A stretch of 64,000 bases of DNA from Escherichia coli (GTDB lineage: Bacteria; Pseudomonadota; Gammaproteobacteria; Enterobacterales; Enterobacteriaceae), in NCBI RefSeq assembly GCF_003790525.1, contig NZ_CP033635.1; one strand, 5' to 3'. Positions 19,738 to 64,000 of this stretch are shown in pieces; positions within the stretch are counted from its first letter, which is position 1, and every line of letters starts with the position of its first letter. The translations under genes and the position numbers were made by a program. The notes under the pieces are model-generated. The model was given only the letters and a program-made list of their open reading frames with translations. It ran no database searches and was not told where the DNA came from.

Positions 19738-21240
19738 ATGAATATCAGAAAACTGTTTTGTCCGGGCGACACACCCCGGATTTTATTGTTTTTATTCTTT
19801 TTTGTTATTTCTGTGATAATCACAATTGCATGCGGATACACTGAGAAGAATGCCACAGGAAATGTGCTGCTTCTGTTTCTCCTTCTGCTCCTTGCACACA
19901 GAAATACCCTCACATCCATTACAACGCTGTTATTTCTGTTCTGTTGTGCACTGTATGCGCCTGCGGGTATGACGTACGGTAAAATCAACAACAGTTTTAT
20001 TGTCGCGTTGCTGCAGACCACGGCTGATGAGGCTGCAGAGTTTACCGGGATGATTCCTGTTTATCATTTTCTGGTCAGTGCCGCGATTCTGGTATTCATG
20101 GTGATTTTCTGGCGGACACACCACCGCGGTCACCGTAACTGGCTGGCACTGCTGCTGTTCGTATTATGCTCTGTAAACAGCTGGCCGTTGCGGATGGTTA
20201 AAGGAACTGTTGTGGGGACAACTGACACATTGCGTGAAATGCAACATTATAAACAACTGAGTCAGCACGGGGCTGACAACTGGAAAATCCTGCCGGGAAC
20301 ACCGTTATATGACACAATTGTTATTGTCACTGGTGAGAGTGTGCGCAGGGATTATATGTCGGTATATGGCTATCCCGTGCCAACCACGCCGTGGCTGAAT
20401 ACGGCTCCCGGTTTATTTATTGACGGCTATACATCGGCAGCAGCCAGTACCGTACCTTCCCTGAGCCGGACACTGATTTATGACTATGAGCAGAACCCTG
20501 ACTCCGGCAACAACGTGGTGGCGCTGGCAGCAAAAGCAGGATACAGCACATGGTGGATATCCAATCAGGGAAAGCTGGGGGAGCATGATACACGCATCTC
20601 TGTTATTGCTTCTGATGCGGAGCATACCGTTTTCCTCAAGAAAGGCAGCTTTGCTTCCCGTAAAACGGATGACATGTTGTTGTTACAGGAAACAGAACGT
20701 GCACTGGCGGATAAATCCTCTCCGAAGGTGATATTCCTGCACATGATTGGCTCTCATCCGAATCCGTGTGACCGACTTAACTCCTGGCCGAATCATTACC
20801 TGGAGCAGTATCCCCGAAAGGTTGCCTGTTACCTCGCCAGCATCAGTAAACTGGATAACTTTCTCGGTCAGCTTGATGGTATCCTTCGCCGGCATTCCCG
20901 TCATTTCGTCATGCTTTACTTTTCTGACCATGGGCTGTCGGTCAGCGACAGTGCTAATCCTGTTCATCATGATGGTCATGTGCAGGGAGGCTACAGCGTT
21001 CCCCTGATTATTACCGCCAGTGATATCACGTCTCATCAGTCCGTCAGCAGAAAAATCAGTGCCCGTCATTTCGCAGGTATTTTTCAGTGGCTGACCGGCA
21101 TTCGTACTGAAAATATACCGCCATTCAATCCGCTGACAGACGAAGATAATGAACCCGTTATGGTTTTTAACGGAGAGAGGAATGTACTGGCAGACAGTCT
21201 GAAACCACAGCCTCTGATTCTTCCGGTCAAGGGAAAATAA
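19738..21240 (+). CDS. Sulfatase-superfamily phosphoethanolamine transferase (EptA/YhbX-like membrane protein)
   Basis: 500 aa; hydrophobic N-terminal domain with several TM helices followed by a periplasmic sulfatase-like domain (VIVTGESVRRDYMSVYGY..., HMIGSHPNP..., LYFSDHG). Start codon is uncertain. Confidence 0.65.
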   Translation: MNIRKLFCPGDTPRILLFLFFFVISVIITIACGYTEKNATGNVLLLFLLLLLAHRNTLTSITTLLFLFCCALYAPAGMTYGKINNSFIVALLQTTADEAAEFTGMIPVYHFLVSAAILVFMVIFWRTHHRGHRNWLALLLFVLCSVNSWPLRMVKGTVVGTTDTLREMQHYKQLSQHGADNWKILPGTPLYDTIVIVTGESVRRDYMSVYGYPVPTTPWLNTAPGLFIDGYTSAAASTVPSLSRTLIYDYEQNPDSGNNVVALAAKAGYSTWWISNQGKLGEHDTRISVIASDAEHTVFLKKGSFASRKTDDMLLLQETERALADKSSPKVIFLHMIGSHPNPCDRLNSWPNHYLEQYPRKVACYLASISKLDNFLGQLDGILRRHSRHFVMLYFSDHGLSVSDSANPVHHDGHVQGGYSVPLIITASDITSHQSVSRKISARHFAGIFQWLTGIRTENIPPFNPLTDEDNEPVMVFNGERNVLADSLKPQPLILPVKGK

Positions 21241-23053: not shown

Positions 23054-24238
23054 TTAACTTTCCCGGCTGGAGAGTGAATCAATGTAATCAGCGTACCATT
23101 GCATCATTTCACGGCGGCCATCGAGATACAGGGCATGATTATAGGTACCCCTGATGGAATTTTTATCCACATGAGCTAACTGCATTTCAATCCAGGCGGA
23201 GTTAAAGCCTTGTTCATGCAGAATTGTACTCATGGTGTGTCTGAAACCGTGCCCTGTGAGTCTTCCCTTATATCCAAGTAATTCAATTACTTGGTTAATG
23301 CTTTCCTTACTAATTGGTTTGCGGGGATCATTTCTACCGATAAAGACTAGGGGATGATGTTTTGAGATTGGTTCAAGCTGCTTAAATAGCATAATAACCT
23401 GCTCAGAGAGCGGCACAATATGAGGTCGCTTCATCTTCATTACTTCTGCCGGGATCTCCCACAATTTTGTCTCAAAATCGATATCTTCCCAGCGTGCAAA
23501 ACGCAGTTCTTGTGTTCGTACGCCGGTTAACATAATGATCTGAGTAGCTGTCTTAGTGATTATACTTCCGGTATAACCCGCCAGATCGTTGAGGAAGTGG
23601 GGAAGTTCATTAGCAGTAAGAAAGGGAAAATGTACTTTTTTCGGTGTAGCTAAAGCACTGGCAAGATCGGGGGCTGGGTTATAGTCTGCCCGGCCAGTAA
23701 CAATTGCATAGCGGAACACCTCACCACAGCGCTGGCGGACCTTGCGCATTTTCTCCAGAGCTCCACGTTTTTCCATTTTACGCAGTGCTTCCAGTAACTC
23801 CATTGGTTTGATTTCGGCAATAGGGCGCTTGCCAATGTAGGGAAAAATGTCTTTTTCAAAGGTATCAATGATTTCATCACGATAGCGTAATGACCACCGA
23901 TCGGCTTTTGACTGGTGCCATTCGCGAGCAATAGCCTCGAACGTATTTTTCAGACTTATTTGCTGCGCGATTTTTTCTTCCTTTTTTGCCTCCCCTGGAT
24001 CGCCTCCAGCAGCGAGGAGTTTCCTGGCTTCACTGCGTTTCTCGCGAGCATCGGCTAGCGTTACATCGGGGTATACGCCAATAGAAAGCATCTTTTCTTT
24101 ACCAGCAAAGCGGTACTTCATGCGCCAGTATTTAGAACCATTAGTGTTAATCAGTAGATACATACCGCCGCCATCAGCAAGCTTATAGGGTTTGTCTTTG
24201 GGTTTTGCGGTTTTCACTTTGATATCGGTTAATGCCAT
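23054..24238 (-). CDS. P4-type (tyrosine recombinase) integrase next to tRNA-Sec
   Basis: 394 aa; N-terminus MALTDIKVKTAKPKDKPYKLADGGGMYLLINTNGSKYWRMKYRFAGKEKMLSIGVYPDVTLADAREKR is the classic P4/CP4-57 integrase N-terminal domain; C-terminal catalytic region has GHGFRHT and LAH..........Y motifs. Confidence 0.9.
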   Translation of the reverse strand: MALTDIKVKTAKPKDKPYKLADGGGMYLLINTNGSKYWRMKYRFAGKEKMLSIGVYPDVTLADAREKRSEARKLLAAGGDPGEAKKEEKIAQQISLKNTFEAIAREWHQSKADRWSLRYRDEIIDTFEKDIFPYIGKRPIAEIKPMELLEALRKMEKRGALEKMRKVRQRCGEVFRYAIVTGRADYNPAPDLASALATPKKVHFPFLTANELPHFLNDLAGYTGSIITKTATQIIMLTGVRTQELRFARWEDIDFETKLWEIPAEVMKMKRPHIVPLSEQVIMLFKQLEPISKHHPLVFIGRNDPRKPISKESINQVIELLGYKGRLTGHGFRHTMSTILHEQGFNSAWIEMQLAHVDKNSIRGTYNHALYLDGRREMMQWYADYIDSLSSRES

Positions 24239-24537: not shown

Positions 24538-24632
24538 TGGCGGAAGATCACAGGAGTCGAACCTGCCCGGGACCGCTGGCGGCCCCAACTGGATTTGAAG
24601 TCCAGCCGCCTCACCGGAGACGACGATCTTCC
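24538..24632 (-). tRNA. selC: tRNA-Sec (selenocysteine, selC)
   Basis: Reverse complement of 24538..24632 matches the 95-nt E. coli selC sequence (GGAAGATCGTCGTCTCCGGTGAGGCGGCTGGACTTCAAATCCAGTTGGGGCCGCCAGCGGTCCCGGGCAGGTTCGACTCCTGTGATCTTCCGCCA) as recalled. Confidence 0.9.
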
Positions 24633-26316: not shown

Positions 26317-28635
26317 ATGAAAATTAGCGACGGAAACTGGTTGATTCAACCTGGCCTCAATTTGATTCACCCGCTTCAGGTGTTCGAGGTTGAACAGCAG
26401 GGTAATGAAATGGTGGTCTATGCTGCCCCCCGTGATGTGCGTGAACGTACCTGGCAGCTTGATACGCCTTTATTTACGCTGCGCTTTTTCTCCCCACAGG
26501 AAGGTATTGTCGGTGTACGGATTGAGCATTTTCAGGGGGCGCTGAATAACGGTCCTCATTACCCGCTCAATATTTTGCAGGACGTGAAGGTCACAATCGA
26601 AAACACAGAACGTTACGCTGAGTTTAAAAGTGGCAACTTAAGTGCGCGTGTCAGCAAAGGTGAGTTCTGGTCACTGGATTTTCTGCGCAACGGCGAACGT
26701 ATTACCGGTAGTCAGGTGAAAAATAATGGCTACGTGCAGGACACGAATAATCAACGAAATTATATGTTTGAGCGGCTGGATCTTGGCGTTGGCGAAACAG
26801 TTTACGGTCTGGGAGAGCGCTTTACTGCCCTGGTGCGCAATGGCCAAACGGTAGAGACCTGGAACCGGGACGGCGGCACAAGTACTGAACAGGCGTATAA
26901 AAATATTCCGTTCTATATGACTAACCGTGGTTATGGGGTACTGGTCAATCATCCTCAATGCGTCTCTTTTGAAGTGGGATCGGAGAAAGTCTCCAAAGTG
27001 CAGTTCAGCGTTGAGAGTGAATATCTCGAATACTTTGTTATCGACGGCCCGACGCCGAAAGCGGTACTTGATCGTTATACCCGTTTTACTGGTCGTCCGG
27101 CGCTGCCGCCCGCGTGGTCCTTCGGTCTGTGGCTAACCACTTCATTTACCACCAACTACGACGAAGCGACGGTAAACAGCTTTATCGATGGTATGGCGGA
27201 ACGCAATCTGCCGCTGCATGTTTTCCACTTTGACTGTTTCTGGATGAAAGCCTTCCAGTGGTGCGATTTTGAGTGGGACCCGCTGACTTTCCCGGACCCG
27301 GAAGGGATGATCCGCCGTCTGAAAGCGAAAGGGCTAAAAATCTGCGTCTGGATTAACCCTTATATCGGGCAAAAATCCCCTGTCTTTAAAGAGTTACAAG
27401 AGAAAGGTTATTTACTCAAACGCCCGGACGGTTCGCTGTGGCAGTGGGATAAATGGCAGCCAGGTCTGGCGATTTATGACTTTACCAATCCGGATGCCTG
27501 CAAATGGTACGCCGACAAACTGAAAGGTCTGGTCGCGATGGGCGTTGATTGCTTTAAGACCGACTTTGGCGAACGTATTCCAACCGATGTTCAATGGTTT
27601 GACGGTTCCGATCCGCAGAAAATGCATAACCATTATGCGTACATCTACAACGAACTGGTGTGGAACGTGCTCAAGGACACCGTTGGTGAGGAAGAAGCCG
27701 TCTTGTTTGCCCGCTCGGCCTCCGTTGGTGCGCAGAAATTTCCGGTACACTGGGGTGGCGACTGTTACGCTAACTACGAATCAATGGCGGAAAGCCTGCG
27801 CGGTGGTTTGTCTATTGGCCTTTCAGGTTTTGGCTTCTGGAGCCACGATATCGGCGGCTTTGAAAATACCGCTCCGGCGCACGTTTACAAACGCTGGTGC
27901 GCGTTTGGTTTGCTCTCCAGCCATAGCCGTTTACACGGCAGCAAATCTTATCGTGTGCCGTGGGCCTATGATGATGAGTCCTGTGATGTGGTGCGCTTCT
28001 TCACGCAACTGAAATGCCGCATGATGCCGTATCTGTATCGTGAGGCTGCTCGTGCGAACGCGCGGGGTACGCCGATGATGCGGGCCATGATGATGGAGTT
28101 CCCGGACGATCCGGCTTGTGATTACCTTGACCGTCAATACATGTTAGGCGACAACGTGATGGTTGCTCCGGTGTTCACTGAATCGGGCGATGTGCAGTTC
28201 TACTTGCCGGAAGGTCGCTGGACACACCTGTGGCACAACGATGAACTCGATGGTAGTCGCTGGCATAAACAGCAGCACGGCTTCCTGAGTCTGCCCGTTT
28301 ATGTGCGTGATAACACCCTACTGGCGCTGGGCAACAACGAGCAACGTCCCGATTACGAGTGGCACGAAGGCACGGCATTCCACCTCTTTAATCTGCAAGA
28401 CGGGCATGAAGCCATCTGTGAAGTGCCCGCTGCCGATGGTTCCGTTCTTTTCACCCTGAAAGCGGCGCGTACTGGCAACACAATTACTGTGAATGGTACG
28501 GGCGAGGCGAAGAACTGGACGCTGTGCTTGCGCAATGTTGTGAAAGTAAATGGTCTGCAAGGCGGTTCGCAGGCTGAAAGTGAGCTGGGGCTGGTGGTGA
28601 CGCCTCAAGGGAATGCGCTGACAATTACGTTGTAA
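26317..28635 (+). CDS. yicI: Alpha-xylosidase (GH31) YicI
   Basis: 772 aa with GH31 catalytic region motifs (WIDMNE-like KTDFGE, HWGGD); conserved synteny with yicJ. Confidence 0.9.
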
Positions 28636-28929: not shown

Positions 28930-30483
28930 ATGCAAATGATTACCTCGCGACAAAACAGATTATTACGATTCCTTCTACCACGAAGGGAATATACGACTAT
29001 TGTTACAATTGCCGGCTATTTAAATGTTTCGGAAAAAACCATTCAACGTGATTTACGTTTACTTGAGCAATGGCTGGGGCAATGGAGAATAAATGTTGAG
29101 AAGCGTGCTGGCGCGGGTGTGATGTTAAGCGCGGAGAATATTGCTGATTTGCTGCATCTTGATCATTTGTTGGGAGCAGAATGTGAAGAGATTGATGGTG
29201 TAATGAATAATGCCAGGCGCGTTAAAATAGCGTCGCAGTTATTAAGTGAAACACCGAATGAAACGTCGATCAGTAAATTGTCAGAACGCTACTTTATCAG
29301 CGGAGCCTCTATTGTTAATGACCTGAGAGTAATTGAGTCCTGGCTTGCGCCGTTGGGGTTATCATTGATCCGCAGCCCAAGTGGTACGCATATTGAAGGT
29401 AGTGAAGGGCAAGTCCGACAGGCAATGGCATTACTGATTAACGGCATTATTAACCATAATGAGCCGCAAGGTGTCGTGTATTCACGTCTGGATCCCGGAA
29501 GCTATAAAGCATTAGTCCATTATTTTGGAGAGGAAGAAGTGTTATTTGTCCAGTCATTGTTACTGGATATGGAAAATGAATTAAGTTGGTCTTTGGGAGA
29601 ACCTTATTACGTTAACATTTTTACTCACATCCTTATTATGATGTATCGCAACACGCACGGGAATGCGTTATCAAGAGAAGAAGATCAAACCAGGCAATAT
29701 GATGAAAATATCTTTAATGTTGCCAGTCAGATGATTCATAAGATAGAACAACGAATTGCACATACATTGCCCGATGATGAAGTCTGGTTTATTTATCAAT
29801 ATATCATTTCATCAGGTGTGGCGATTGATGGACAAAAAGATGTGAGCATTATTTCACATATGCAGGCCAGCAATGAAGCGCGTCTGATTACCTGGCGTTT
29901 AATTACGGTATTCAGTGACATCGTGGACTGCGATTTTAGTGAAGACAGCGCATTATATGATGGCTTAATGGTGCATATTAAACCGCTGATTAACCGACTA
30001 AATTATCGTATTCATATCCGTAATCCATTGTTGGAAGATATTAAAGCAGAACTAGCGGATGTCTGGCGGTTGACGCAATATGTGGTGAATCAGGTATTTA
30101 AAACCTGGGGTGAGAATGCAGTGAGCGAGGATGAAGTGGGTTACCTGACCGTTCATTTTCAGGCTGCGATGGAGCGGCAAATTGCCCGTAAACGTGTATT
30201 ACTGGTCTGTTCAACCGGAATCGGAACTTCGCATCTACTGAAAAGCCGTATTCTGCGAGCATTTCCTGAATGGACGATTGTTGATGTTATTTCAGCAGCG
30301 AATTTATCACAGGTTTTGCCTGACAATATCGAACTGATTATTTCGACAATTAATTTGCCTACAGTCACTATGCCGGTCGCTTATGTTACCGCTTTTTTTA
30401 ATGATGCCGATATTAAGCGGGTCACTGAAATGGTGATTACGGAAAAATTACATCATGCGACGTCTCGGGTCGTTGAAATTTAA
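28930..30483 (+). CDS. PRD-domain transcriptional regulator with PTS EIIB-like domain (MtlR/LicR/ManR-type)
   Basis: 517 aa: N-terminal HTH, central PRD-like helical regions, C-terminal EIIB(Gat)-like segment LLVCSTGIGTSHLLKSRI. Confidence 0.7.
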   Translation: MQMITSRQNRLLRFLLPRREYTTIVTIAGYLNVSEKTIQRDLRLLEQWLGQWRINVEKRAGAGVMLSAENIADLLHLDHLLGAECEEIDGVMNNARRVKIASQLLSETPNETSISKLSERYFISGASIVNDLRVIESWLAPLGLSLIRSPSGTHIEGSEGQVRQAMALLINGIINHNEPQGVVYSRLDPGSYKALVHYFGEEEVLFVQSLLLDMENELSWSLGEPYYVNIFTHILIMMYRNTHGNALSREEDQTRQYDENIFNVASQMIHKIEQRIAHTLPDDEVWFIYQYIISSGVAIDGQKDVSIISHMQASNEARLITWRLITVFSDIVDCDFSEDSALYDGLMVHIKPLINRLNYRIHIRNPLLEDIKAELADVWRLTQYVVNQVFKTWGENAVSEDEVGYLTVHFQAAMERQIARKRVLLVCSTGIGTSHLLKSRILRAFPEWTIVDVISAANLSQVLPDNIELIISTINLPTVTMPVAYVTAFFNDADIKRVTEMVITEKLHHATSRVVEI

Positions 30484-30509
30484 TGTCAGAATTTTATGAG
30501 GTATGACGA

Positions 30510-30980
30510 ATGGACATAACAAAAATCCTGAATACGAATCGCGTTATTTTAGATATGCAAGCGACGAATAAAGCGGAGGCGATTGAAGAATTAACTAATC
30601 TTCTCAAAAAAGATGGTGCGATCGATTGTCGGGAAACCTTTATTAAAGATGTCTGGCAGCGCGAAGCGGAAGGCTCGACTGGTTTTGAAAATCATATTGC
30701 GATCCCGCATGGTAAATCTTCTGCGGTAATTAATACTACGCTGGCAATTGGCCGTACCCGCCAGGATATTCCCTGGGAAACGCTGGATGGCAGTAGCGTG
30801 CGCTGTATTATTTTATTTGCGGTACGTCTTGAAGATCAAAATACCACCCATATCCGTTTACTTTCCCAGGTCGCGGGCGCGCTGGCGGATGATGACATCA
30901 TAGAACAATTGTTAGTTGAGACGAGTCCGCAAAAAATCATTGATCTCTTTAGTCAGTATGCACAATCCGATGTCTGCTAA
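30510..30980 (+). CDS. PTS EIIA component (fructose/mannitol type-2 family)
   Basis: 156 aa with ENHIAIPHGKS active-site histidine region. Confidence 0.75.
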   Translation: MDITKILNTNRVILDMQATNKAEAIEELTNLLKKDGAIDCRETFIKDVWQREAEGSTGFENHIAIPHGKSSAVINTTLAIGRTRQDIPWETLDGSSVRCIILFAVRLEDQNTTHIRLLSQVAGALADDDIIEQLLVETSPQKIIDLFSQYAQSDVC

Positions 30981-30997
30981 ATAACAGGGAGTATGTC

Positions 30998-31312
30998 ATG
31001 AATATTGTCTGTGTTGCCGCCTGTACGGCGGGTATTGCTCATACCTATATTGCTCGTGAAAAGTTAATCAAAGGAGCAAAAGCTCTGGGCCATACCATTA
31101 AAGTTGAAACCCAGGGAACCATTGGTACAGAAAATGAATTACAGGCGGCAGATATCTCTGCTGCTGACGTCGTGATTCTTGCTGTAGATGTGAAAATAAA
31201 AGGAGAAGAACGCTTCACCAATAAACGTATTGTGCGAGTAAAGACAGAGATCGTCATTAAATCGCCCGTTCAATTTCTTGAAAAGGTCGAAAAATCACTG
31301 GGAAACAAATGA
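30998..31312 (+). CDS. PTS EIIB component (fructose-like)
   Basis: 104 aa; N-terminal active-site cysteine context MNIVCVAACTAGIAHTYIA. Confidence 0.75.
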   Translation: MNIVCVAACTAGIAHTYIAREKLIKGAKALGHTIKVETQGTIGTENELQAADISAADVVILAVDVKIKGEERFTNKRIVRVKTEIVIKSPVQFLEKVEKSLGNK

Positions 31313-31336
31313 TCCTTATACTGGAGGGATCTTAAT

Positions 31337-32428
31337 ATGAAAGAAAATAAAATTCCGGTTTCACAGGAAATTAAAAAACATTTATTAACCGGCATCTCGT
31401 GGATGATACCCCTTATTGTGGCCGCCGGGATATGTATTGCGTTGGGGCAAGTTCTTGGCGGTACAGATGTTGGTGAAAAAACAGGAACAATCCCGTGGAT
31501 GCTTAATCAGATTGGCGGCTGGGGAATGGGGCTGATTGTGCCGCTGATTAGCGCGGCAATTGCCTATTCTATTGCTGATCGTCCCGGTTTTGCCCCGGGC
31601 CTGATTGTCGGCTTTCTCTGTGGGCAAATCCATACCGGATTTATTGGCGGTATGTTGGGTGGTTTCCTGGTGGGCTACACCATTTTGCTACTTAAACGCT
31701 ATATCCGCCTGCCGCAGTCGATGCAAGGACTCATGCCAATCATGGTGTTGCCGGTATTAAGCACCATTATCGGTGGGCTGTTAATGATGACGCTGATTGG
31801 TAAACCCATCGCCTGGTTACAAGAAGCACTGATTCATTTGCTCGAGTCGATGCAGGGCGGATCGCGCTTCCTGATGGGGGCCATACTTGGCGCGATGGCA
31901 ACCTTCGATTTCGGTGGTCCGGTCAACAAAACCATGTCGCTGTTTTCCGATGGCTTGCTGGTCAGTGGCGTCTACGGACCAGAAGCCGTGAAATTTGTCG
32001 GCTCAATCATCCCTCCGTTTGGCATCACACTTTCGTTCTTACTGACACGGCATAAATACACCCGTGCGGAGCGCGAGGCGCTGAAAGCCGCGTTTCCGAT
32101 GGGGATCTGCATGATCACTGAAGGAGTCATTCCGATCGCCGCGCGTGACCTGCTGCGAGTAGTGGGATCTTGTGTGGTGGCATCGGCGGTCGCGGGCGGC
32201 TTAATCATGGTGTGGGGCGTGGAGAGTCCGGTTCCGCATGGCGGCATGTTTGTTGTGCCTCTGTTCACCCATCCTCTGCTGTTTTGCCTGGCGCTGGGTA
32301 TAGGCACGGTGATTTGTGGCGTGATGCTTTCACTCTGGAAGAAACCGGTAACGGAACGCGACGAAGAGTTTGACGAACTGAGCGATCAAAAGCTGAAAGA
32401 TGAAGAGATCACTTTCACCCTCGAATAA
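31337..32428 (+). CDS. PTS EIIC permease (fructose-like)
   Basis: 363-aa polytopic membrane protein immediately after EIIA and EIIB. Confidence 0.75.
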   Translation: MKENKIPVSQEIKKHLLTGISWMIPLIVAAGICIALGQVLGGTDVGEKTGTIPWMLNQIGGWGMGLIVPLISAAIAYSIADRPGFAPGLIVGFLCGQIHTGFIGGMLGGFLVGYTILLLKRYIRLPQSMQGLMPIMVLPVLSTIIGGLLMMTLIGKPIAWLQEALIHLLESMQGGSRFLMGAILGAMATFDFGGPVNKTMSLFSDGLLVSGVYGPEAVKFVGSIIPPFGITLSFLLTRHKYTRAEREALKAAFPMGICMITEGVIPIAARDLLRVVGSCVVASAVAGGLIMVWGVESPVPHGGMFVVPLFTHPLLFCLALGIGTVICGVMLSLWKKPVTERDEEFDELSDQKLKDEEITFTLE

Positions 32429-32439
32429 CCGGAGGCCCT

Positions 32440-33291
32440 ATGTTTGCCGATATGAAAAGTATGGTGATGAAAGCCTGGCATGAACATTACGCCTTACTGG
32501 CGATCAACTGTATGAATCTGGAAAGTGCTCACGCAGCTATCCGCGTGGCGGAGAAGAATCGCGCTCCGATCATTCTCAATCTCTATCAGGGGCATCTGGC
32601 GCATTTTCCAGCACCCGTCGCGGCGGCAGTGGTTAAAACGCTCGCGGAATCTGCCTCAGTACCGGTCGCTCTGGCGCTTGATCATGGCAAAAATCCGGAC
32701 TGTATTCGTCAGGCGTTTCGTGCTGGTTTCAGCGGATTAATGATTGATGCTTCTGCTTTTCCCCTGGAGGAAAACGTGCGCCAGACCAGGGCGGTGGTGG
32801 AACTCGCCGCCAGCGCGCAGCTCTGCGTGGAAGGCGAACTGGGCCATCTGGCAGATGCGCCGCGTTACGACCAGGCCGCCAATGCAGACCTGATGACGCA
32901 ACCCACTGATGTGGAAACGTTTATCGCGCAGACAGGCATTGATCTACTGGCCGTCTCGGTAGGCACGGCGCACGGCATGTACGCGCCTGGTGTTGTACCT
33001 GCTATTGATTTTCAGCGTCTGGCGGAGATTTTCCACTGCTCGAGCGTGCCTCTGGCATTACATGGCGGTAGCGGTACGCCGTTCGATCAGCTCCAGCTCT
33101 GTACGACGCTGGGGGTAGCAAAAATCAACGTGGGGGCGGCCATTTTTGAACGGGGGAAATCCGCGCTCCTGCATACCCTCTGTCACGATATATCCATTGA
33201 ACTGGTGGACGCGCTGAAAGCTATGGAACTGGCCTTCGAAGAAGCGATTACACCGTATTTACAGGCGAGCGGCTCTATCGGCAAAGCCTGA
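32440..33291 (+). CDS. Class II ketose-bisphosphate aldolase (GatY/KbaY/Fba-like), paralog 1
   Basis: 283 aa with class II aldolase signature (LALDHGKNPD, HGGSGTP). Confidence 0.7.
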   Translation: MFADMKSMVMKAWHEHYALLAINCMNLESAHAAIRVAEKNRAPIILNLYQGHLAHFPAPVAAAVVKTLAESASVPVALALDHGKNPDCIRQAFRAGFSGLMIDASAFPLEENVRQTRAVVELAASAQLCVEGELGHLADAPRYDQAANADLMTQPTDVETFIAQTGIDLLAVSVGTAHGMYAPGVVPAIDFQRLAEIFHCSSVPLALHGGSGTPFDQLQLCTTLGVAKINVGAAIFERGKSALLHTLCHDISIELVDALKAMELAFEEAITPYLQASGSIGKA

Positions 33292-33371
33292 TTCATTTTC
33301 TGTCATGGCCTTTATGCCAGTGCAATAACGCACCGGCAGGGCGGACTACACGCTGAAACTGGAGATTTAAC

Positions 33372-34232
33372 ATGTTAGTTTCGATGAAAGAATTACTGCA
33401 ACCTACCCGCCAGCACGGCTTTGCCATTGGCGCATTTAATGTGGCGGATAACTGTTTCCTTCGCGCAGTCGTGGATGAAGCAGAAGCGACAAATACTCCG
33501 GCGATTATTGCCATCCATCCCAGCGAACATGATTTTGTGGGCGATGCCTTTTTCGCTCACGTTCGCGAAATTACCCAGCGTAGTCCGGTCCCGTTTGTAC
33601 TGCACCTCGATCATGGTGCCTCTGTAGAGCATGTTTTGCGTGCGATTCGCTGCGGATTTACCTCAGTAATGATCGACGGTTCGCTGCTGCCGTATGAAGA
33701 AAACGTGGCGCTGACCGCAGAAGTGGTTCGCCTCGCTCACGCGGTTGGAGTGTCGGTTGAGGGTGAACTGGGAACCATCGGACAAACAGGAACGTCGGTA
33801 GAAGGTGGTGTTTCACAAGTGACCTACACAGATCCGGCGCAGGCCGCCGATTTTATTGCTCGTACAGGTGCCGACACTCTGGCTGTGGCGATTGGTACAG
33901 CGCATGGCATCTATCCAAAAGGGATGCAGCCGAAGCTGCAAATGGACATTTTGCGCGACATTGCCGGACGTATTGATATTCCGCTGGTGCTACACGGTGG
34001 TTCGGCAAACCCGGACGCGGAGATTGCTGAATCAGTTACGCTCGGCGTCGGCAAAATCAATATCTCCAGCGATATGAAATACGCCTATTTCCAGAAAGTG
34101 CGTGAAATTCTCGCTAAAGAGAGCTGGTGGGACCCGAACGTCATCTATCCGGATGCGATTAACGCGGCGCGGGAAGTCATTCGCCAGAAAATGAAACTGT
34201 TCGGTTCGATCGGTAAAGCGTCACTGTACTAA
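33372..34232 (+). CDS. Class II ketose-bisphosphate aldolase (GatY/KbaY/Fba-like), paralog 2
   Basis: 286 aa with class II aldolase signature (LHLDHGAS, VLHGGSANP, GVGKINISSD). Confidence 0.75.
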   Translation: MLVSMKELLQPTRQHGFAIGAFNVADNCFLRAVVDEAEATNTPAIIAIHPSEHDFVGDAFFAHVREITQRSPVPFVLHLDHGASVEHVLRAIRCGFTSVMIDGSLLPYEENVALTAEVVRLAHAVGVSVEGELGTIGQTGTSVEGGVSQVTYTDPAQAADFIARTGADTLAVAIGTAHGIYPKGMQPKLQMDILRDIAGRIDIPLVLHGGSANPDAEIAESVTLGVGKINISSDMKYAYFQKVREILAKESWWDPNVIYPDAINAAREVIRQKMKLFGSIGKASLY

Positions 34233-34279
34233 GCCAGAAGGGCGGGGCAACCCGCCTTTTACGCAACAAGGAACGAGAT

Positions 34280-35212
34280 ATGCACTATCTGGGGTTGGAT
34301 ATTGGTGGGACCAAAATCGCCGCCGTCGTCATGGATGCGCATGGCTGGGAGATTCGCCGTTACCGCTGCCCGACGCAAAAGTCGACATATCAACAATTTG
34401 TCTCATGCGTTGTGGCGCTTATCGAGCAGATTAGGCGGGACGTTCAACGACCGATGCTGACAGGGATCGCCTTACCCGGCAGTATCTCGCCACTCACTGG
34501 CCTGATTAAAAACGCGAATATTCAGGTGATTAACGGTCATGCGTTACAGGCTGATTTGCAGCAATTGCTTGGGCAACCGGTGGTGATAGCCAATGATGGT
34601 AACTGTTTCGCGCTATCAGAAGCTTGCGACGGTGCCGGGCAAGATTATGACGTGGTATTTGGTATTACGCTTGGTTCGGGCTGCGGCGGTGGCATTGCCA
34701 TCAAGCAACGACCGTTTATAGGGGCCTGGGGAAATGCTGCCGAATGCGGTCATATCACGTTGCCAGGCTATATGGAGCAGGAAGATGGTCCATCAGTCAG
34801 TTGCTATTGCGGCAAACACAACTGCGTGGAGTCGTTTGTTTCCGGCAGCGGTTTTAGTGAACGCTATCAACAGATGACTGGTAACTTGCTCACTCCTGCG
34901 GCGATTGTCACCCTGGCACAACGTGGTGATGCTTGTGCCATGCAGCAGGTGGCACGTTTTCGCCAACAGCTTGCCCGCACGCTGGCAACCATCGTTAACG
35001 TTGTTGACCCTGGCGTGATTGTCATCGGCGGCGGGCTTTCGAATGTGGAACTGCTTATCGCCGATCTGAACACAGAAGTCGCTCCTCTGGTTTTCACCGA
35101 CCAATTCACCACCCCCATTGTAAAAGCACTGCACGGCGACAGTAGCGGAATGCGTGGCGCTGCCTGGCTTGCTATGCGCAACGGAGAAGCCAATGAAACG
35201 TTCACAAATTAA
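34280..35212 (+). CDS. ROK-family sugar kinase
   Basis: 310 aa; N-terminal LGLDIGGTKIAAVV ATP-binding motif and cysteine-rich zinc motif (CYCGKHNC). Confidence 0.75.
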   Translation: MHYLGLDIGGTKIAAVVMDAHGWEIRRYRCPTQKSTYQQFVSCVVALIEQIRRDVQRPMLTGIALPGSISPLTGLIKNANIQVINGHALQADLQQLLGQPVVIANDGNCFALSEACDGAGQDYDVVFGITLGSGCGGGIAIKQRPFIGAWGNAAECGHITLPGYMEQEDGPSVSCYCGKHNCVESFVSGSGFSERYQQMTGNLLTPAAIVTLAQRGDACAMQQVARFRQQLARTLATIVNVVDPGVIVIGGGLSNVELLIADLNTEVAPLVFTDQFTTPIVKALHGDSSGMRGAAWLAMRNGEANETFTN

Positions 35213-35873
35213 TTATGTTATTGATAAAGCACATGCCATTGCGCAGACCTTCCGCGTTTGTTTGCCAGAGTTCGCCTATTTTACGGTGGATGACTGGCTG
35301 CAGCTGGAACGGGATAACTGGCAAGAAGTGGTCGACTTACAGCTCGGTTGGGATATCACCGATTTTGGTCGTGGTGATTTCAACCAAACGGGACTAACAC
35401 TGCTAACGATGCGCAACGGCGCGCTGGGGGCGGCGGCATATCCAAAACCGTATGCTGAGAAAATGTTGCAGATCCAACAAGATCAGCAAACTCCCTGGCA
35501 TTTTCACACCCACAAAATGGAAGATATCCTCAATCGGGGCGGTGGAGACTTATGCATGCAGTTGGCCTGGGCCAACGAAGCCAATCTCTGTGATGATCAA
35601 CGAGTCATTACCGTGAGTGTTGATGGTCAGCGGCGTACCATGAAACCTGGTGAAACGCTGGTGCTAAAGCCGGGGCAGGGCATTTGCCTGCCGCCGCGTC
35701 TGTATCATCGCTTCTGGGCGGAAAAAGCGTTTGTTCTCGGCTGGGAAATCTCGATGGTAAATGATGACCAACACGATAACTATTTTCTTGAGCCGGGAGG
35801 ACGTTTTCCGGCGATAGAAGAAGATGAACCGGTGAAATGGTTATTGTGCAGTGAGTATGGAATTTTGCGCTAA
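35193..35873 (+). CDS. D-lyxose/D-mannose isomerase-like cupin
   Basis: About 226 aa from the ATG at 35193 (MKRSQINYVIDKAHAIA...); cupin-type metal site context (WHFHTHKMEDI). The start overlaps the ROK kinase 3' end by 20 nt. Confidence 0.65.
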   Translation: MKRSQINYVIDKAHAIAQTFRVCLPEFAYFTVDDWLQLERDNWQEVVDLQLGWDITDFGRGDFNQTGLTLLTMRNGALGAAAYPKPYAEKMLQIQQDQQTPWHFHTHKMEDILNRGGGDLCMQLAWANEANLCDDQRVITVSVDGQRRTMKPGETLVLKPGQGICLPPRLYHRFWAEKAFVLGWEISMVNDDQHDNYFLEPGGRFPAIEEDEPVKWLLCSEYGILR

Positions 35874-57645: not shown

Positions 57646-59410
<1,765 letters not shown>

Positions 59411-59761
59411 AGTAAATAGCTGACTTATGGATGTGCTGGGGATTCTATGTATTTAGCTGTGGCTTTACCATTACTTTTCCCGTTTTTGACTTAAATAGCA
59501 ATTTACCCGCCAATTCTTGCTGAACATCTATACTTTTTTTGTATTTTTATGCGATTCATTGATTTCTGCAGTACGTGCAGGAAGGAATCGCAGAGCAACA
59601 GTAAAAGAATATGGTTGCTAATGATTTTATTTGATTGATTTCTTTATTGAAAATCAACAATGTGCTTAAAAATCATTCGGGTCGGATTGCCGCGAAAGAA
59701 GTGATACACTAGCGCGTCAATATCAGTGCGGTATCAGTATTCAGGTAGCTGTTGAGCCTGG

Positions 59762-59773
59762 GGCGGTAGCGTG
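59762..59773 (+). promoter_or_regulatory. ops element (GGCGGTAGCGTG) within a JUMPstart-like leader of the waaQ operon
   Basis: Exact 12-nt ops motif on the coding strand about 50 nt upstream of the waaQ start, in the waaA-waaQ divergent intergenic region. Confidence 0.7.
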
Positions 59774-59822
59774 CTTTTTCTGCTTCACCTTAATCGGATA
59801 ATCTCAACAAAAAGAGTTACTT

Positions 59823-60881
59823 GTGGATAAGCCATTTCGAAGAATTTTGCTCATTAAGATGCGTTTTCATGGGGATATGTTATTAACTACTCCCGTCATT
59901 AGTTCGCTGAAAAAAAATTACCCTGACGCAAAAATCGATGTGCTGCTTTATCAGGACACCATCCCGATCCTGTCTGAAAATCCAGAGATTAACGCGCTCT
60001 ACGGCATAAAAAATAAAAAAGCAAAAGCCTCAGAAAAAATTGCCAACTTTTTCCATCTCATCAAGATATTACGTGCCAATAAGTATGACCTTATCGTTAA
60101 TCTTACCGATCAATGGATGGTTGCTATACTGGTTCGCTTATTAAATGCCCGTGTGAAAATTTCCCAGGATTATCATCATCGGCAGTCTGCTTTTTGGCGT
60201 AATAGTTTCACTCATTTGGTGCCGTTGCAGGGTGGAAATGTGGTGGAAAGTAACTTATCCGTGCTGACGCCATTGGGACTTGAATCGTTGGTGAAGCAGA
60301 CAACCATGAGTTACCCGCCTGCAAGCTGGAAACGTATGCGTCGCGAACTTGATCACGCTGGTGTTGGACAAAATTATGTGGTTATCCAACCTACGGCGCG
60401 GCAAATCTTCAAATGCTGGGACAACGCCAAGTTTTCCGCTGTGATTGATGCCTTACATGCTCGTGGTTATGAAGTCGTTCTGACGTCCGGCCCAGATAAA
60501 GACGATCTGGCCTGCGTCAATGAAATTGCGCAGGGATGCCAGACGCCACCAGTAACGGCGCTGGCCGGAAAGGTGACCTTCCCGGAACTTGGTGCGTTAA
60601 TCGATCATGCGCAGCTGTTTATTGGCGTTGATTCCGCACCGGCGCATATTGCCGCTGCAGTTAATACGCCGCTGATATCGCTGTTTGGTGCGACAGACCA
60701 TATTTTCTGGCGTCCCTGGTCAAATAACATGATTCAATTCTGGGCGGGAGATTACCGGGAAATGCCAACGCGCGATCAGCGTGACCGAAATGAGATGTAT
60801 CTTTCGGTTATTCCGGCGGCAGATGTCATTGCAGCTGTCGATAAATTACTTCCCTCCTCCACGACAGGTACGTCGTTATGA
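59823..60881 (+). CDS. waaQ: LPS heptosyltransferase III WaaQ (start codon uncertain; GTG at 59823 or a downstream TTG/ATG)
   Basis: GT9 heptosyltransferase-like sequence ...ILLIKMRFHGDMLLTTPVISSLKKNYPDAKIDVLLYQDT...; first gene after the ops leader. Confidence 0.85.
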   Translation: MDKPFRRILLIKMRFHGDMLLTTPVISSLKKNYPDAKIDVLLYQDTIPILSENPEINALYGIKNKKAKASEKIANFFHLIKILRANKYDLIVNLTDQWMVAILVRLLNARVKISQDYHHRQSAFWRNSFTHLVPLQGGNVVESNLSVLTPLGLESLVKQTTMSYPPASWKRMRRELDHAGVGQNYVVIQPTARQIFKCWDNAKFSAVIDALHARGYEVVLTSGPDKDDLACVNEIAQGCQTPPVTALAGKVTFPELGALIDHAQLFIGVDSAPAHIAAAVNTPLISLFGATDHIFWRPWSNNMIQFWAGDYREMPTRDQRDRNEMYLSVIPAADVIAAVDKLLPSSTTGTSL

Positions 60882-62002
60882 TCGTTGCTTTTTGTTTATA
60901 TAAATATTTTCCCTTTGGCGGTTTGCAGCGCGATTTTATGCGTATTGCTCAGACAGTTGCCGCCCGAGGTCATCATGTTCGGGTTTATACCCAGTCGTGG
61001 GAAGGCGAATGCCCTGATGTATTTGAACTGATCAAAGTGCCGGTTAATTCGCATACCAATCACGGGCGCAATGCGGAATATTTTGCCTGGGTGCAAAAAC
61101 ATTTACGTGAACACCCCGTCGATAGAGTCGTTGGATTTAATAAAATGCCGGGGCTGGACGTTTATTATGCCGCTGATGTTTGTTATGCCGAGAAAGTAGC
61201 GCAGGAGAAAGGCTTTTTCTATCGCCTGACGTCACGTTATCGCCATTATGCCGCCTTTGAGCGGGCAACCTTCGAACAGGGCAAGCCGACACAGCTGCTG
61301 ATGCTGACAGATAAGCAAATCGCCGATTTCCAGAAACATTATCAGACTGAAGCGGAACGTTTTCATATTCTGCCACCGGGGATTTATCCTGATCGTAAAT
61401 ATAGCCAGCAACCAGCGAATAGCCGTGAAATCTTCCGTAAGAAGAATGGAATAACCGAACAACAATATTTATTGTTGCAGGTCGGTTCAGACTTCACGCG
61501 TAAAGGTGTCGATCGTTCCATTGAAGCACTTGCTTCGTTACCGGATTCGCTGCGCCACAACACATTACTATATGTTGTTGGGCAGGATAAACCGCGAAAA
61601 TTTGAGGCGCTGGCAGAAAAACGCGGCGTGCGCAGTAATGTTCACTTCTTCTCGGGGCGCAACGATGTCTCGGAATTAATGGCGGCGGCGGATTTATTAC
61701 TTCATCCTGCCTACCAGGAAGCGGCGGGAATTGTGTTGCTGGAAGCGATAACTGCAGGATTACCGGTACTAACAACAGCCGTTTGTGGCTATGCGCATTA
61801 TATTGTCGACGCCAATTGCGGCGAGGCTATTGCTGAGCCATTCCGCCAGGAAACATTGAATGAGATTTTACGCAAAGCGTTAACGCAATCTTCATTGCGC
61901 CAGGCCTGGGCGGAAAATGCGCGACATTATGCTGATACACAAGATTTATACAGTCTGCCAGAGAAAGCGGCGGACATCATAACGGGTGGTCTGGATGGTT
62001 GA
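60878..62002 (+). CDS. waaG: LPS core glucosyltransferase I WaaG
   Basis: 374 aa beginning [47 protein letters not shown] overlap with the waaQ stop. Confidence 0.9.
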
Positions 62003-62792
62003 ACTTAAAGAGCCGTTTGCCACGTTATGGCGCGGTAAAGATCCTTTTGAGGAAGTTAAAACCTTGCAGGGTGAGGTATTTCGTGAACTGGAAACTCGCC
62101 GCACTCTGCGCTTTGAAATGGCGGGCAAAAGCTATTTTCTCAAATGGCATCGCGGCACGACCCTGAAAGAGATAATCAAAAATTTACTCTCATTGCGGAT
62201 GCCAGTATTAGGCGCAGACCGCGAATGGAATGCGATTCATCGACTGCGGGATGTCGGCGTTGATACTATGTATGGGGTGGCATTCGGCGAAAAAGGCATT
62301 AATCCGCTGACCAGAACCTCGTTTATTATTACCGAAGATCTGACACCAACCATCAGTCTGGAAGATTACTGTGCTGACTGGGCGACCAACCCACCAGATG
62401 TTCGCGTAAAGCGTATGCTTATTAAGCGTGTCGCGACGATGGTGCGCGATATGCATGCTGCGGGCATTAACCACCGTGACTGTTATATCTGTCATTTCCT
62501 GCTGCACTTGCCTTTTTCCGGTAAGGAAGAGGAGTTAAAAATTTCAGTAATTGACCTGCACCGGGCGCAGCTTCGCACGCGCGTTCCATGTCGTTGGCGC
62601 GATAAAGATCTTATTGGACTTTATTTTTCTTCGATGAATATTGGCCTGACTCAACGGGATATCTGGCGGTTTATGAAAGTGTATTTTGTCGCCCCGCTTA
62701 AAGACATTCTCAAGCAGGAACAAGGGCTGCTGTCGCAAGCAGAAGAAAAAGCCACAAAAATCAGGGAAAGAACGATTCGAAAATCGTTGTAA
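61995..62792 (+). CDS. waaP: LPS core heptose kinase WaaP
   Basis: Start chosen at [21 protein letters not shown] (265 aa); overlaps the waaG 3' end. Confidence 0.9.
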
Positions 62793-62807
62793 TTTCCGGA
62801 GAGAAAT

Positions 62808-63824
62808 ATGAGTGCCCACTATTTTAATCCACAAGAGATGATCAATAAGACAATCATCTTCGATGAAAGGCCAGAGGCGTCAGTGGCATCATCATTCCAT
62901 GTTGCTTATGGCATTGATCAGAACTTTCTTTTTGGTTGTGGTGTTTCAATCACGTCAGTTTTGTTACATAACAACGACGTGAGTTTTGTCTTCCACGTTT
63001 TTATTGATGATATCCCTGACGCCGATATCCAGCGTTTATCCCAATTGGCGAAAAGCTATCATACCTGTATCCAGATCCATCTGGTAAATTGTGAACGGCT
63101 TAAGGTATTACCGACGACCAAAAATTGGTCTATTGCCATGTATTTCCGTTTTGTAATTGCAGATTACTTTATTGATCAACAAGATAAGATCCTGTACCTG
63201 GATGCTGATATCGCCTGTCAGGGAACCTTAAAACCGCTGATAACAATGGATCTTGCCAATAACGTTGCTGCTGTTGTTACTGAACGCGATGCTAACTGGT
63301 GGTCGTTACGGGCTCAAAGTCTGCAGTGTAATGAACTTGAAAAGGGTTACTTTAATTCAGGTGTCCTGTTAATTAATACACCTGCGTGGGCGCAGGAGTC
63401 CGTTTCTGCTAAAGCGATGTCGATGCTTGCTGATAAAGCCGTCGTTTCCCGTTTAACCTATATGGATCAAGATATACTAAATCTTATCCTGTTAGGGAAA
63501 GTTAAATTCATTGATGCTAAATACAATACGCAATTTAGTTTAAATTATGAATTAAAAAAATCATTTATTTGTCCAATTAATGATGAAGCCGTATTAATTC
63601 ATTATGTCGGCCCGACAAAACCCTGGCATTACTGGGCCGGTTATCCAAGCGCGCAGCCATTTATCAAAGCCAAAGAAGCATCGCCCTGGAAAAATGAACA
63701 GTTAATGCGGCCAATTAACTCAAATTATGCTCGTTATTGCGCCAAGCATAATTTTAAACAAAATAAACCAATTAACGGGATAATGAATTATATTTATTAT
63801 TTTTATTTAAAGATAATAAAATGA
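62808..63824 (+). CDS. LPS outer-core GT8 glycosyltransferase (WaaO/WaaI family)
   Basis: 338 aa with GT8 features (GIDQNFLFGCGVSITSVLLHN, DADIACQG DxD-type motif, NSGVLLIN). Its position directly after waaP differs from K-12, where waaS and waaB follow waaP. Confidence 0.75.
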   Translation: MSAHYFNPQEMINKTIIFDERPEASVASSFHVAYGIDQNFLFGCGVSITSVLLHNNDVSFVFHVFIDDIPDADIQRLSQLAKSYHTCIQIHLVNCERLKVLPTTKNWSIAMYFRFVIADYFIDQQDKILYLDADIACQGTLKPLITMDLANNVAAVVTERDANWWSLRAQSLQCNELEKGYFNSGVLLINTPAWAQESVSAKAMSMLADKAVVSRLTYMDQDILNLILLGKVKFIDAKYNTQFSLNYELKKSFICPINDEAVLIHYVGPTKPWHYWAGYPSAQPFIKAKEASPWKNEQLMRPINSNYARYCAKHNFKQNKPINGIMNYIYYFYLKIIK

Positions 63825-63839
63825 CATTGAGAAAAGTTA

Positions 63840-64000
63840 AATGAATGAATTTATAAAAGAACGGTTTTCGTATTTAGCAGATAATAAAAAAGAAAACGTC
63901 CCAGAGCTAAATGTTTCCTACGGTATCGATAAGAATTTTTTGTATGGTGCTGGCGTTTCAATTTCTTCCGTTTTGATTAATAATTCAGATATTAATTTTG
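63840..64000 (+). CDS. Second GT8 glycosyltransferase (WaaT/WaaJ/WaaR-like), 5' part only; runs off the window end
   Basis: Translation MNEFIKERFSYLADNKKENVPELNVSYGIDKNFLYGAGVSISSVLINNSDINF parallels the N-terminus of the preceding GT8 protein. Confidence 0.6.

Follow-up and report, generated by a model that had tools for sequence, protein, structure and literature searches.

An ops-led waaQ operon of probable R1 core type in a 64-kb sequence of Escherichia coli

Introduction

To which lipopolysaccharide (LPS) core type does an Escherichia coli waa locus belong when the sequence stops partway through the waaQ operon, and what would its leader do? This question is raised by the window analysed here, a stretch of E. 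coli DNA of 64,000 nucleotides that ends within the second gene after waaP. The original prediction had placed an ops element in front of waaQ and had described an outer-core gene order different from that of K-12. The locus is very probably an R1-type core waaQ operon, led by ops and predicted to be antiterminated by RfaH. The choice of R1 over R4 comes from the nearest genomes, and the defining genes, waaV and the R1 waaL, lie beyond position 64000. Nothing in this locus is novel, as both the R1 core operon and the ops/JUMPstart/RfaH control of waaQ are already known.

Genes of the Locus

The following genes were read at the end of the window:

58133..59410, minus strand: waaA (kdtA), Kdo transferase, divergent neighbour (NCBIfam NF004385, 905 bits, full length; PGAP)
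59823..60881, plus strand: waaQ (rfaQ), LPS core heptosyltransferase III, GTG start (NCBIfam NF007742 RfaQ equivalog, 712.7 bits, cutoff 467; PGAP in SMS-3-5)
60878..62002, plus strand: waaG, GT4 glucosyltransferase I (GlcI onto HepII), overlapping waaQ and waaP (PGAP waaG)
61995..62792, plus strand: waaP (rfaP), core heptose(I) kinase (NCBIfam NF011703 RfaP equivalog, 479 bits, cutoff 170)
62808..63824, plus strand: waaO, first GT8 glycosyltransferase, R1/R4 allele, for the second outer-core hexose (PF01501, E=1e-80; PF08437; NF011718, 609 bits)
63841..64000, plus strand: 5' end of waaT, second GT8 glycosyltransferase, 53 codons, cut by the window end (PF01501, E=2e-4, 21.4 bits)

The waaA gene bounds the intergenic and leader region of 412 nt on the 5' side of waaQ. 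For waaP, the NF011703 alignment begins at residue 4 of the open reading frame that opens at 61986, which is consistent with the PGAP start at 61995. WaaG matches only generic GT4 models in NCBIfam. The two GT8 genes that had been predicted after waaP are both present, with waaO complete and the second recognized by PF01501 in a fragment of 160 nt. The score of this waaT fragment is below the gathering score of PF01501 only because the gene is truncated; its full-length counterpart in E. coli SMS-3-5, a GT8 protein of 331 aa, matches the same family with E=4e-72. The fragment is 100% identical to the N-terminus of that protein and 98% identical to the WaaT of R4, and it does not resemble WaaY, WaaB or WaaS to any meaningful degree.

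Gene Order and Core Type

The locus was compared with actual K-12, R1, R2, R3 and R4 loci, the type of each being verified in silico by published typing primers (PMC13293308). The control loci gave amplicons of 1442 bp (K-12), 380 bp (R4, from waaW to waaX), 1021 bp (R3) and 610 bp (R2), and SMS-3-5 gave the R1-diagnostic amplicon of 842 bp, from waaW to waaV.

The locus resembles the K-12 waaQ operon in its JUMPstart/ops and RirA-equivalent segment, in having waaQ-waaG-waaP as its first genes and in having waaA as the divergent neighbour. It differs from K-12 in what follows, since waaS-waaB stand directly after waaP in MG1655, where the window has GT8 genes, and in K-12 waaL is part of the opposite operon. 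A tblastn search of the window with K-12 WaaS, WaaB, WaaZ and WaaU gave no match. The proteins are divergent as well: WaaQ, WaaG and WaaP of the window are only 73%, 90% (90.4% for WaaG) and 84% identical to those of K-12, whereas they are 97-99% identical to those of R3 (O157:H7), with 99.1% for WaaQ. The gene order is thus not that of K-12, as had been predicted.

A GT8 gene directly after waaP is found in all four non-K-12 types, so that the predicted list of R1, R2, R3 and R4 was accurate, also with regard to R2. An initially assumed R2 order with waaS-waaB after waaP was wrong and was discarded; the R2 control P470, typed by its 610 bp amplicon, carries a GT8 gene at this position. The gene that follows is the one that separates the types: it is the second GT8 gene, waaT, in R1 and R4, the GT4 gene waaB in R2 and the kinase gene waaY (rfaY) in R3. 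In the window, the order waaQ-waaG-waaP-waaO-waaT of R1 and R4 is observed. The R2 order is absent, the second gene being a GT8 gene without similarity to WaaB, and so is the R3 order of waaI followed by waaY, since the N-terminus of the second GT8 is unlike WaaY. WaaO of the window is 95.9% identical to R4 WaaO, 55% to the GT8 protein WaaI of R3, 51% to K-12 WaaO and 29% to the GT8 protein after waaP in R2. At the DNA level, waaO-waaT was found only in 2,526 genomes, which also carry waaY-waaW of the R1/R4 type. Since a second GT8 gene follows in R1 and R4 alone, the window itself limits the core type to these two. It had been stated that the window ends before the genes that distinguish the types; this applies to R1 versus R4, which cannot be read within the window, but not to R2, R3 and K-12, which are already set apart by waaT.

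R1 or R4

The R1 locus (waaQGPOTYWVL; prototype F470, also E. coli C) has the same order and the same family for every gene in the window, and no difference from it was detected. Positions 59400-64000 are 100% identical at the DNA level to 21 complete genomes, which are R1 by gene content and, in the case of SMS-3-5, also by amplicon. The allele of the window is SMS-3-5-like and differs by approximately 2.3% from the predominant R1 allele. E. coli W is presumably another strain with an R1 core.

The best-surviving alternative is an operon with the same ops mechanism and an R4 core (waaQGPOTYWXL), in which waaX, encoding a GT25 beta-1,4-galactosyltransferase, and the R4 ligase replace waaV and the R1 ligase at the distal end; this is improbable. 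Both types share waaQ-waaG-waaP-waaO-waaT-waaY-waaW, and the genes in the window are 97.4-100% identical at the DNA level between SMS-3-5 (R1) and Rb-50 (R4), and are therefore not diagnostic of R1 versus R4. For the same reason, separating the two by identity to one R4 locus failed, and only the nearest-neighbour argument works. Approximately 695 of the 2,526 genomes with this waaO-waaT are without the R1 distal part, and R1 and R4 are about equally common in phylogroup F (PMC13293308). The 30 complete genomes closest to the window over 59400-64000, including the 21 fully identical ones, speak against an R4 core: all of them continue with waaT-waaY-waaW-waaV(GT2)-waaL and cover the full R1 operon of 9.5 kb at 99.9-100%, and none is R4. 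In waaO, Rb-50 also differs at 2.6% of positions, in contrast to the R1 genomes, to which the window is identical. SMS-3-5, which we take to be a member of phylogroup F, continues beyond waaO with GT8-waaY-waaW-GT2-ligase (PGAP). A tblastn search of SMS-3-5 with WaaX gave no match, while waaX and the R4-type waaL are present in the R4 control Rb-50, and the R4 ligase is only 35% identical to that of R1. R1 is the commonest core type, accounting for about 34% of the 5,426 genomes analysed.

A distal part that is hybrid, rearranged or disrupted by an insertion sequence, and hence neither canonical R1 nor canonical R4, is less probable still. Such variants exist, for example the R1/R4 mixture of ECOR46, but are rare, with about 1% of genomes being untypable (PMC13293308). 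In STLEFF_29, a near-identical genome, an IS1 interrupts this region, and the source strain itself is outside the complete-genome collection; the part of the operon in the window, on the other hand, is intact and identical to that of canonical R1 genomes. An IS1 in waaT, as in E. coli B, would be another variant of this kind. Positions 24538-64000 of the window are 99.996-100% identical to SMS-3-5, while positions 1-24537 differ from it in having another selC island, which was otherwise found only in TUM9803 in the complete-genome collection. The source is therefore a relative and not SMS-3-5 as first assumed. TUM9803 is rejected as the source as well, since its WaaQ and WaaG have the same accessions as those of the O157 R3 locus. 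That the combination of an SMS-3-5-like backbone with a TUM9803-type selC island would extend to a recombinant or hybrid distal waa end, of R1/R4 type or new, is likewise very doubtful.

The ops/JUMPstart Leader

The region between waaA and waaQ holds three nested elements:

59717..59788, plus strand: RirA-like leader segment, homologue of the 73-nt K-12 RirA sRNA/waaQ 5' UTR (local alignment to MG1655 rirA)
59735..59773, plus strand: JUMPstart, 39 nt, a small stem-loop ending in ops (Rfam RF01707; identical to K-12)
59762..59773, plus strand: ops (operon polarity suppressor), 12 nt, GGCGGTAGCGTG on the non-template strand (exact match)

The predicted ops was found exactly in place: GGCGGTAGCGTG matches the 12-nt consensus GGCGGTAGnnTG of the non-template strand, and waaQ starts 49 nt downstream. 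No other exact copy occurs in the 64-kb window, where 0.01 would be expected from shuffled sequences, and the element closes, on the 3' side, a full-length match to RF01707 (model positions 1-38 of 38; 55.2 bits, 20 bits above the gathering score of 35; E=6.5e-12). The element is thus found within a JUMPstart, in the same orientation as the genes and 5' of the first gene of a long polysaccharide operon. A second ops-like site at 30789, with one mismatch, is located inside a PTS gene and was dismissed as chance, and a weak Rfam miRNA match between waaA and waaQ, which scores 21 bits where the gathering score is 93, was regarded as noise.

Positions 59732-59779, which include JUMPstart and ops, are identical to the K-12 waaQ leader. 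The rirA gene is annotated in MG1655; when it is aligned locally to the window, its counterpart spans 59717-59788, with 5 mismatches and 1 gap. For the K-12 leader, both dependence on RfaH and an sRNA, RirA, have been described (PMC6358824, PMC5995543), with the function of RirA given in PMC6358824, and GGCGGTAGCGTG is identical to the 'ops12' oligo of the structural work on RfaH:ops (PMC5995543). The ops is unchanged in all five reference core-type loci that contain the leader, despite a protein divergence of 15-27% in the adjacent waaQ and waaP, and is for that reason uninformative with regard to the core type. The predicted RfaH-dependent leader is well supported by this canonical element in the right place and orientation. 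That the ops match is a coincidence or relic without a role in transcription is the least probable reading of all, given the 0.01 exact matches expected by chance, the 39-nt JUMPstart context, the invariance of the element among diverged loci and the experimentally shown RfaH dependence of the identical K-12 sequence.

By homology to K-12 RirA, the ops would be located in the transcribed 5' leader in the source strain, and the 5' end of the RirA-like segment at 59717 is probably the transcription start. A consensus promoter scan gave no strong or convincing sigma-70 site at this start. Reading the sequence by eye, a possible extended -10 (TGaTACACT) was noted at 59702-59710.

Proposed Operon Expression and Core Assembly

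Transcription would start between waaA and waaQ, probably close to 59717, and RNA polymerase would transcribe the JUMPstart and pause at the ops (59762-59773). In the paused complex, the exposed non-template strand of the ops is expected to recruit RfaH by forming a small hairpin. The factor would then remain on the polymerase, where it would suppress pausing and Rho-dependent termination and couple translation, allowing expression of the nine-gene operon of about 9.5 kb to its end. Recruitment and antitermination at this locus are inferred from the literature on the identical K-12 sequence. The window has no rfaH gene.

In the assembly of the core, WaaG would add GlcI, WaaP would phosphorylate HepI and WaaQ would add HepIII, with WaaO adding the second hexose and WaaT adding GalI. 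Past the window end, judging from the nearest genomes, the operon most likely continues with waaY-waaW-waaV-waaL. Among the products of these genes, WaaV, a GT2 beta-glucosyltransferase, and the R1-type ligase would define the R1 core.

Implications

The second gene after waaP, whether a GT8 gene, waaB or waaY, separates R1 and R4 from R2, R3 and K-12, and a truncated waa locus is more informative than had been assumed. Beyond correct annotation, the significance of the locus is small, as it has the commonest core type and textbook control of waaQ. Knowledge of the core type, R1 or at worst R4, helps to predict the O-antigen ligation site and susceptibility to phages and antibodies, and aids strain typing.

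Genes of the waa region

The waa region comprises a divergent waaA, the operon genes waaQ, waaG and waaP, one complete GT8 glycosyltransferase gene and the start of a second.

58133-59410, minus strand: waaA, divergent neighbour
59823-60881, plus strand: waaQ, GTG start, RfaQ equivalog (712.7 bits)
60878-62002, plus strand: waaG, GT4, 90% identity to K-12 WaaG
61995-62792, plus strand: waaP, RfaP equivalog (479 bits)
62808-63824, plus strand: waaO (PGAP name), complete GT8 gene (PF01501, E=1e-80)
from 63841, plus strand: waaT, second GT8 gene, first 53 codons (PF01501, E=2e-4 on the fragment)

Each complete ORF of the region matches its family model along the entire length, and thus no truncation or disruption is present inside the window. 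The 53-codon fragment matches, at 100% identity, the N-terminus of a GT8 protein of 331 aa (PF01501, E=4e-72) from SMS-3-5, a near-identical genome of core type R1. The protein encoded at 62808-63824 (+) is named 'lipopolysaccharide 3-alpha-galactosyltransferase' by both NCBIfam NF011718 and PGAP in K-12-type, R1, R2, R3 and R4 genomes alike. This name does not agree with the R1 literature, in which GlcI is added by WaaG, GlcII by WaaO, GalI by WaaT, GalII by WaaW and the side-branch beta-glucose by WaaV; the curated K-12 entry also says glucosyltransferase.

Core type

One reference locus per core type was compared, and the type of each was verified in silico with the primers of PMC13293308.

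Reference loci and the genes that follow waaP
Core type; strain; amplicon; genes after waaP
R1; SMS-3-5; 842 bp; waaO (GT8), then waaT (GT8)
R4; Rb-50; 380 bp; waaO (GT8), then waaT (GT8)
R3; O157:H7 TR01; 1021 bp; waaI (GT8, 55% identical to the window's), then waaY (kinase)
R2; P470; 610 bp; different GT8 (29% identical to the window's), then waaB (GT4)
K-12; MG1655; 1442 bp; waaS (no Pfam domain), then waaB (GT4)

These gene orders bear out the original prediction that a GT8 gene directly after waaP indicates R1, R2, R3 or R4 and not K-12. In addition, tblastn with K-12 WaaS, WaaB, WaaZ and WaaU, and with R4 WaaX, gave no match in the window or the SMS-3-5 locus, so the K-12 waaS/waaB order, which would speak against that prediction, was not found. 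The window had also been said to stop before the type-distinguishing genes. This is too strict, since the second gene after waaP, whose start lies in the window, narrows the type to R1 or R4, but it holds for the choice between these two, which cannot be read from the window's own sequence. Between SMS-3-5 (R1) and Rb-50 (R4), in-window identity is 100% for the leader, 99.4% for waaQ, 98.1% for waaG, 99.0% for waaP, 97.4% for waaO and 99.4% for the waaT start. Divergence begins in waaW (94.9%) and is complete in waaV/waaX and waaL, where R1 WaaV and R4 WaaX are unrelated proteins and the WaaL proteins are 35% identical.

The nearest relatives point to R1. In SMS-3-5 the operon runs on from waaT through waaY, waaW and waaV (GT2) to waaL. 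Twenty-one complete E. coli genomes, SMS-3-5 among them, match positions 59400-64000 at 100% identity, and the 9.5 kb R1 operon is covered at 99.9-100% in all 21 of these and in all 30 top matches to this segment. Because 30 of the 30 nearest genomes are R1, the strain very probably has an R1 core, with the R1-defining distal genes outside the window. An R4 core would fit the near-identical proximal genes and leader of Rb-50 but is very unlikely given these relatives. A hybrid or disrupted distal operon end, which would lie past the intact genes seen here, is more improbable still.

The waaO-waaT DNA (62808-64000) occurs in 2,526 of 5,426 genomes and R1/R4-type waaY-waaW in the same number, which is consistent with the narrowing to R1 or R4. 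R1-specific waaV-waaL is also present in 1,831 of the 2,526, an R1 share of 34% of the 5,426 genomes; survey frequencies are 35.4% for R1 and 12.3% for R4 (PMC13293308). Past the window, at 27274-28308 of the SMS-3-5 locus sequence (L001, own coordinates) and about 6 kb beyond the waa cluster end, lies waaH, encoding a UDP-glucuronate:LPS(HepIII) glycosyltransferase, the N-terminal part of which is 34% identical to the GT2 protein WaaV of R1.

The ops and JUMPstart leader

The predicted 12-nt ops element was confirmed as an exact GGCGGTAGCGTG at 59762-59773 on the plus strand. No second exact copy occurs in the 64 kb, and 0.01 copies are expected from dinucleotide-preserving shuffles. It forms the 3' end of a full-length match to the Rfam JUMPstart model RF01707 (59735-59773, 55.2 bits, gathering score 35, E=6.5e-12), and is situated between waaA and waaQ, in an intergenic region of 412 nt, in the same orientation as waaQ, whose GTG is 49 nt downstream. 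A consensus promoter scan gave no strong site at the inferred transcription start of the leader.

The 12-nt ops is found in the leader of all RfaH-controlled operons; RNA polymerase pauses there, and a small hairpin in the non-template strand (C3:G8) flips out T6, which is read by RfaH, with G4, G5, A7 and G8 essential for recruitment (PMC5995543). RfaH blocks premature termination and couples translation over the long waaQ and rfb operons, its loss leads to a truncated LPS core, and RirA, a product of the waaQ leader, titrates it (PMC6358824). All literature-defined ops positions are intact in the window copy, and the waaQ operon would be RfaH-dependent in this strain, judging from sequence identity.

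The five reference loci that contain the leader all have the identical 12-mer, and ops is therefore not informative on core type. The K-12 leader is the same at every base over 59732-59779, spanning JUMPstart and ops. The annotated 73-nt K-12 RirA sRNA differs from its counterpart at 59717-59788 by five mismatches and one gap. In the middle of the intergenic region, at about 59500-59665, essentially no alignment with K-12 is possible. Conservation holds on either side of this stretch and in the JUMPstart/ops/RirA segment. Rb-50 (R4) and the window share 100% identity across the entire leader. These patterns fit a division of the proximal waa region into two deep allelic classes, K-12/R2 versus R1/R3/R4, with WaaQ identities of 73% and 99%, respectively.

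An ops-like GGCAGTAGCGTG with one mismatch (G4 to A) lies at 30789-30800 (+), within a PTS fructose-type IIA ORF (30510-30980). This is most likely a coincidence; 0.27 such one-mismatch sites are expected by chance, and a G4C substitution abolishes RfaH recruitment (PMC5995543).

The SMS-3-5-like backbone and the selC island

Positions 24538-64000 are 99.996-100% identical to SMS-3-5. The window is not SMS-3-5 itself, as is clear from the different selC island left of tRNA-Sec.

1-24632: selC-integrated island, missing from the otherwise near-identical SMS-3-5
19738-21240, plus strand: 500-aa, very divergent phosphoethanolamine transferase-like protein
23054-24238, minus strand: integrase of the selC island
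24538-24632, minus strand: tRNA-Sec
about 28930-35870, plus strand: sugar-utilisation cluster, genes without K-12 names in the SMS-3-5 annotation

At its selC site, SMS-3-5 instead has a P4-like satellite that carries a SIR2 gene. Of 5,426 complete genomes, only TUM9803 has the full island, and this strain differs from the window in the type of its waa locus. The cargo of the island includes PhoX, an fdrA/ylbE/carbamate kinase/xanthine permease cluster, IS remnants and an outer-membrane protein. The island also encodes the 500-aa protein. Its best NCBIfam match is the CptA subfamily (110 bits against a cutoff of 404), and every EptA and MCR cutoff is far above its score; its target might be LPS or another part of the envelope. 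The sugar-utilisation cluster encodes a BglG-family regulator with PTS regulation domains, PTS IIA/IIB/IIC of the fructose family, two aldolases, a ROK protein and a D-lyxose/D-mannose isomerase.

Conclusions

The evidence supports a core type of R1 or R4 from the window alone, and of R1 from the nearest relatives. Everything in the waa region is already known: it represents the commonest E. coli core type, preceded by a textbook ops/JUMPstart leader.
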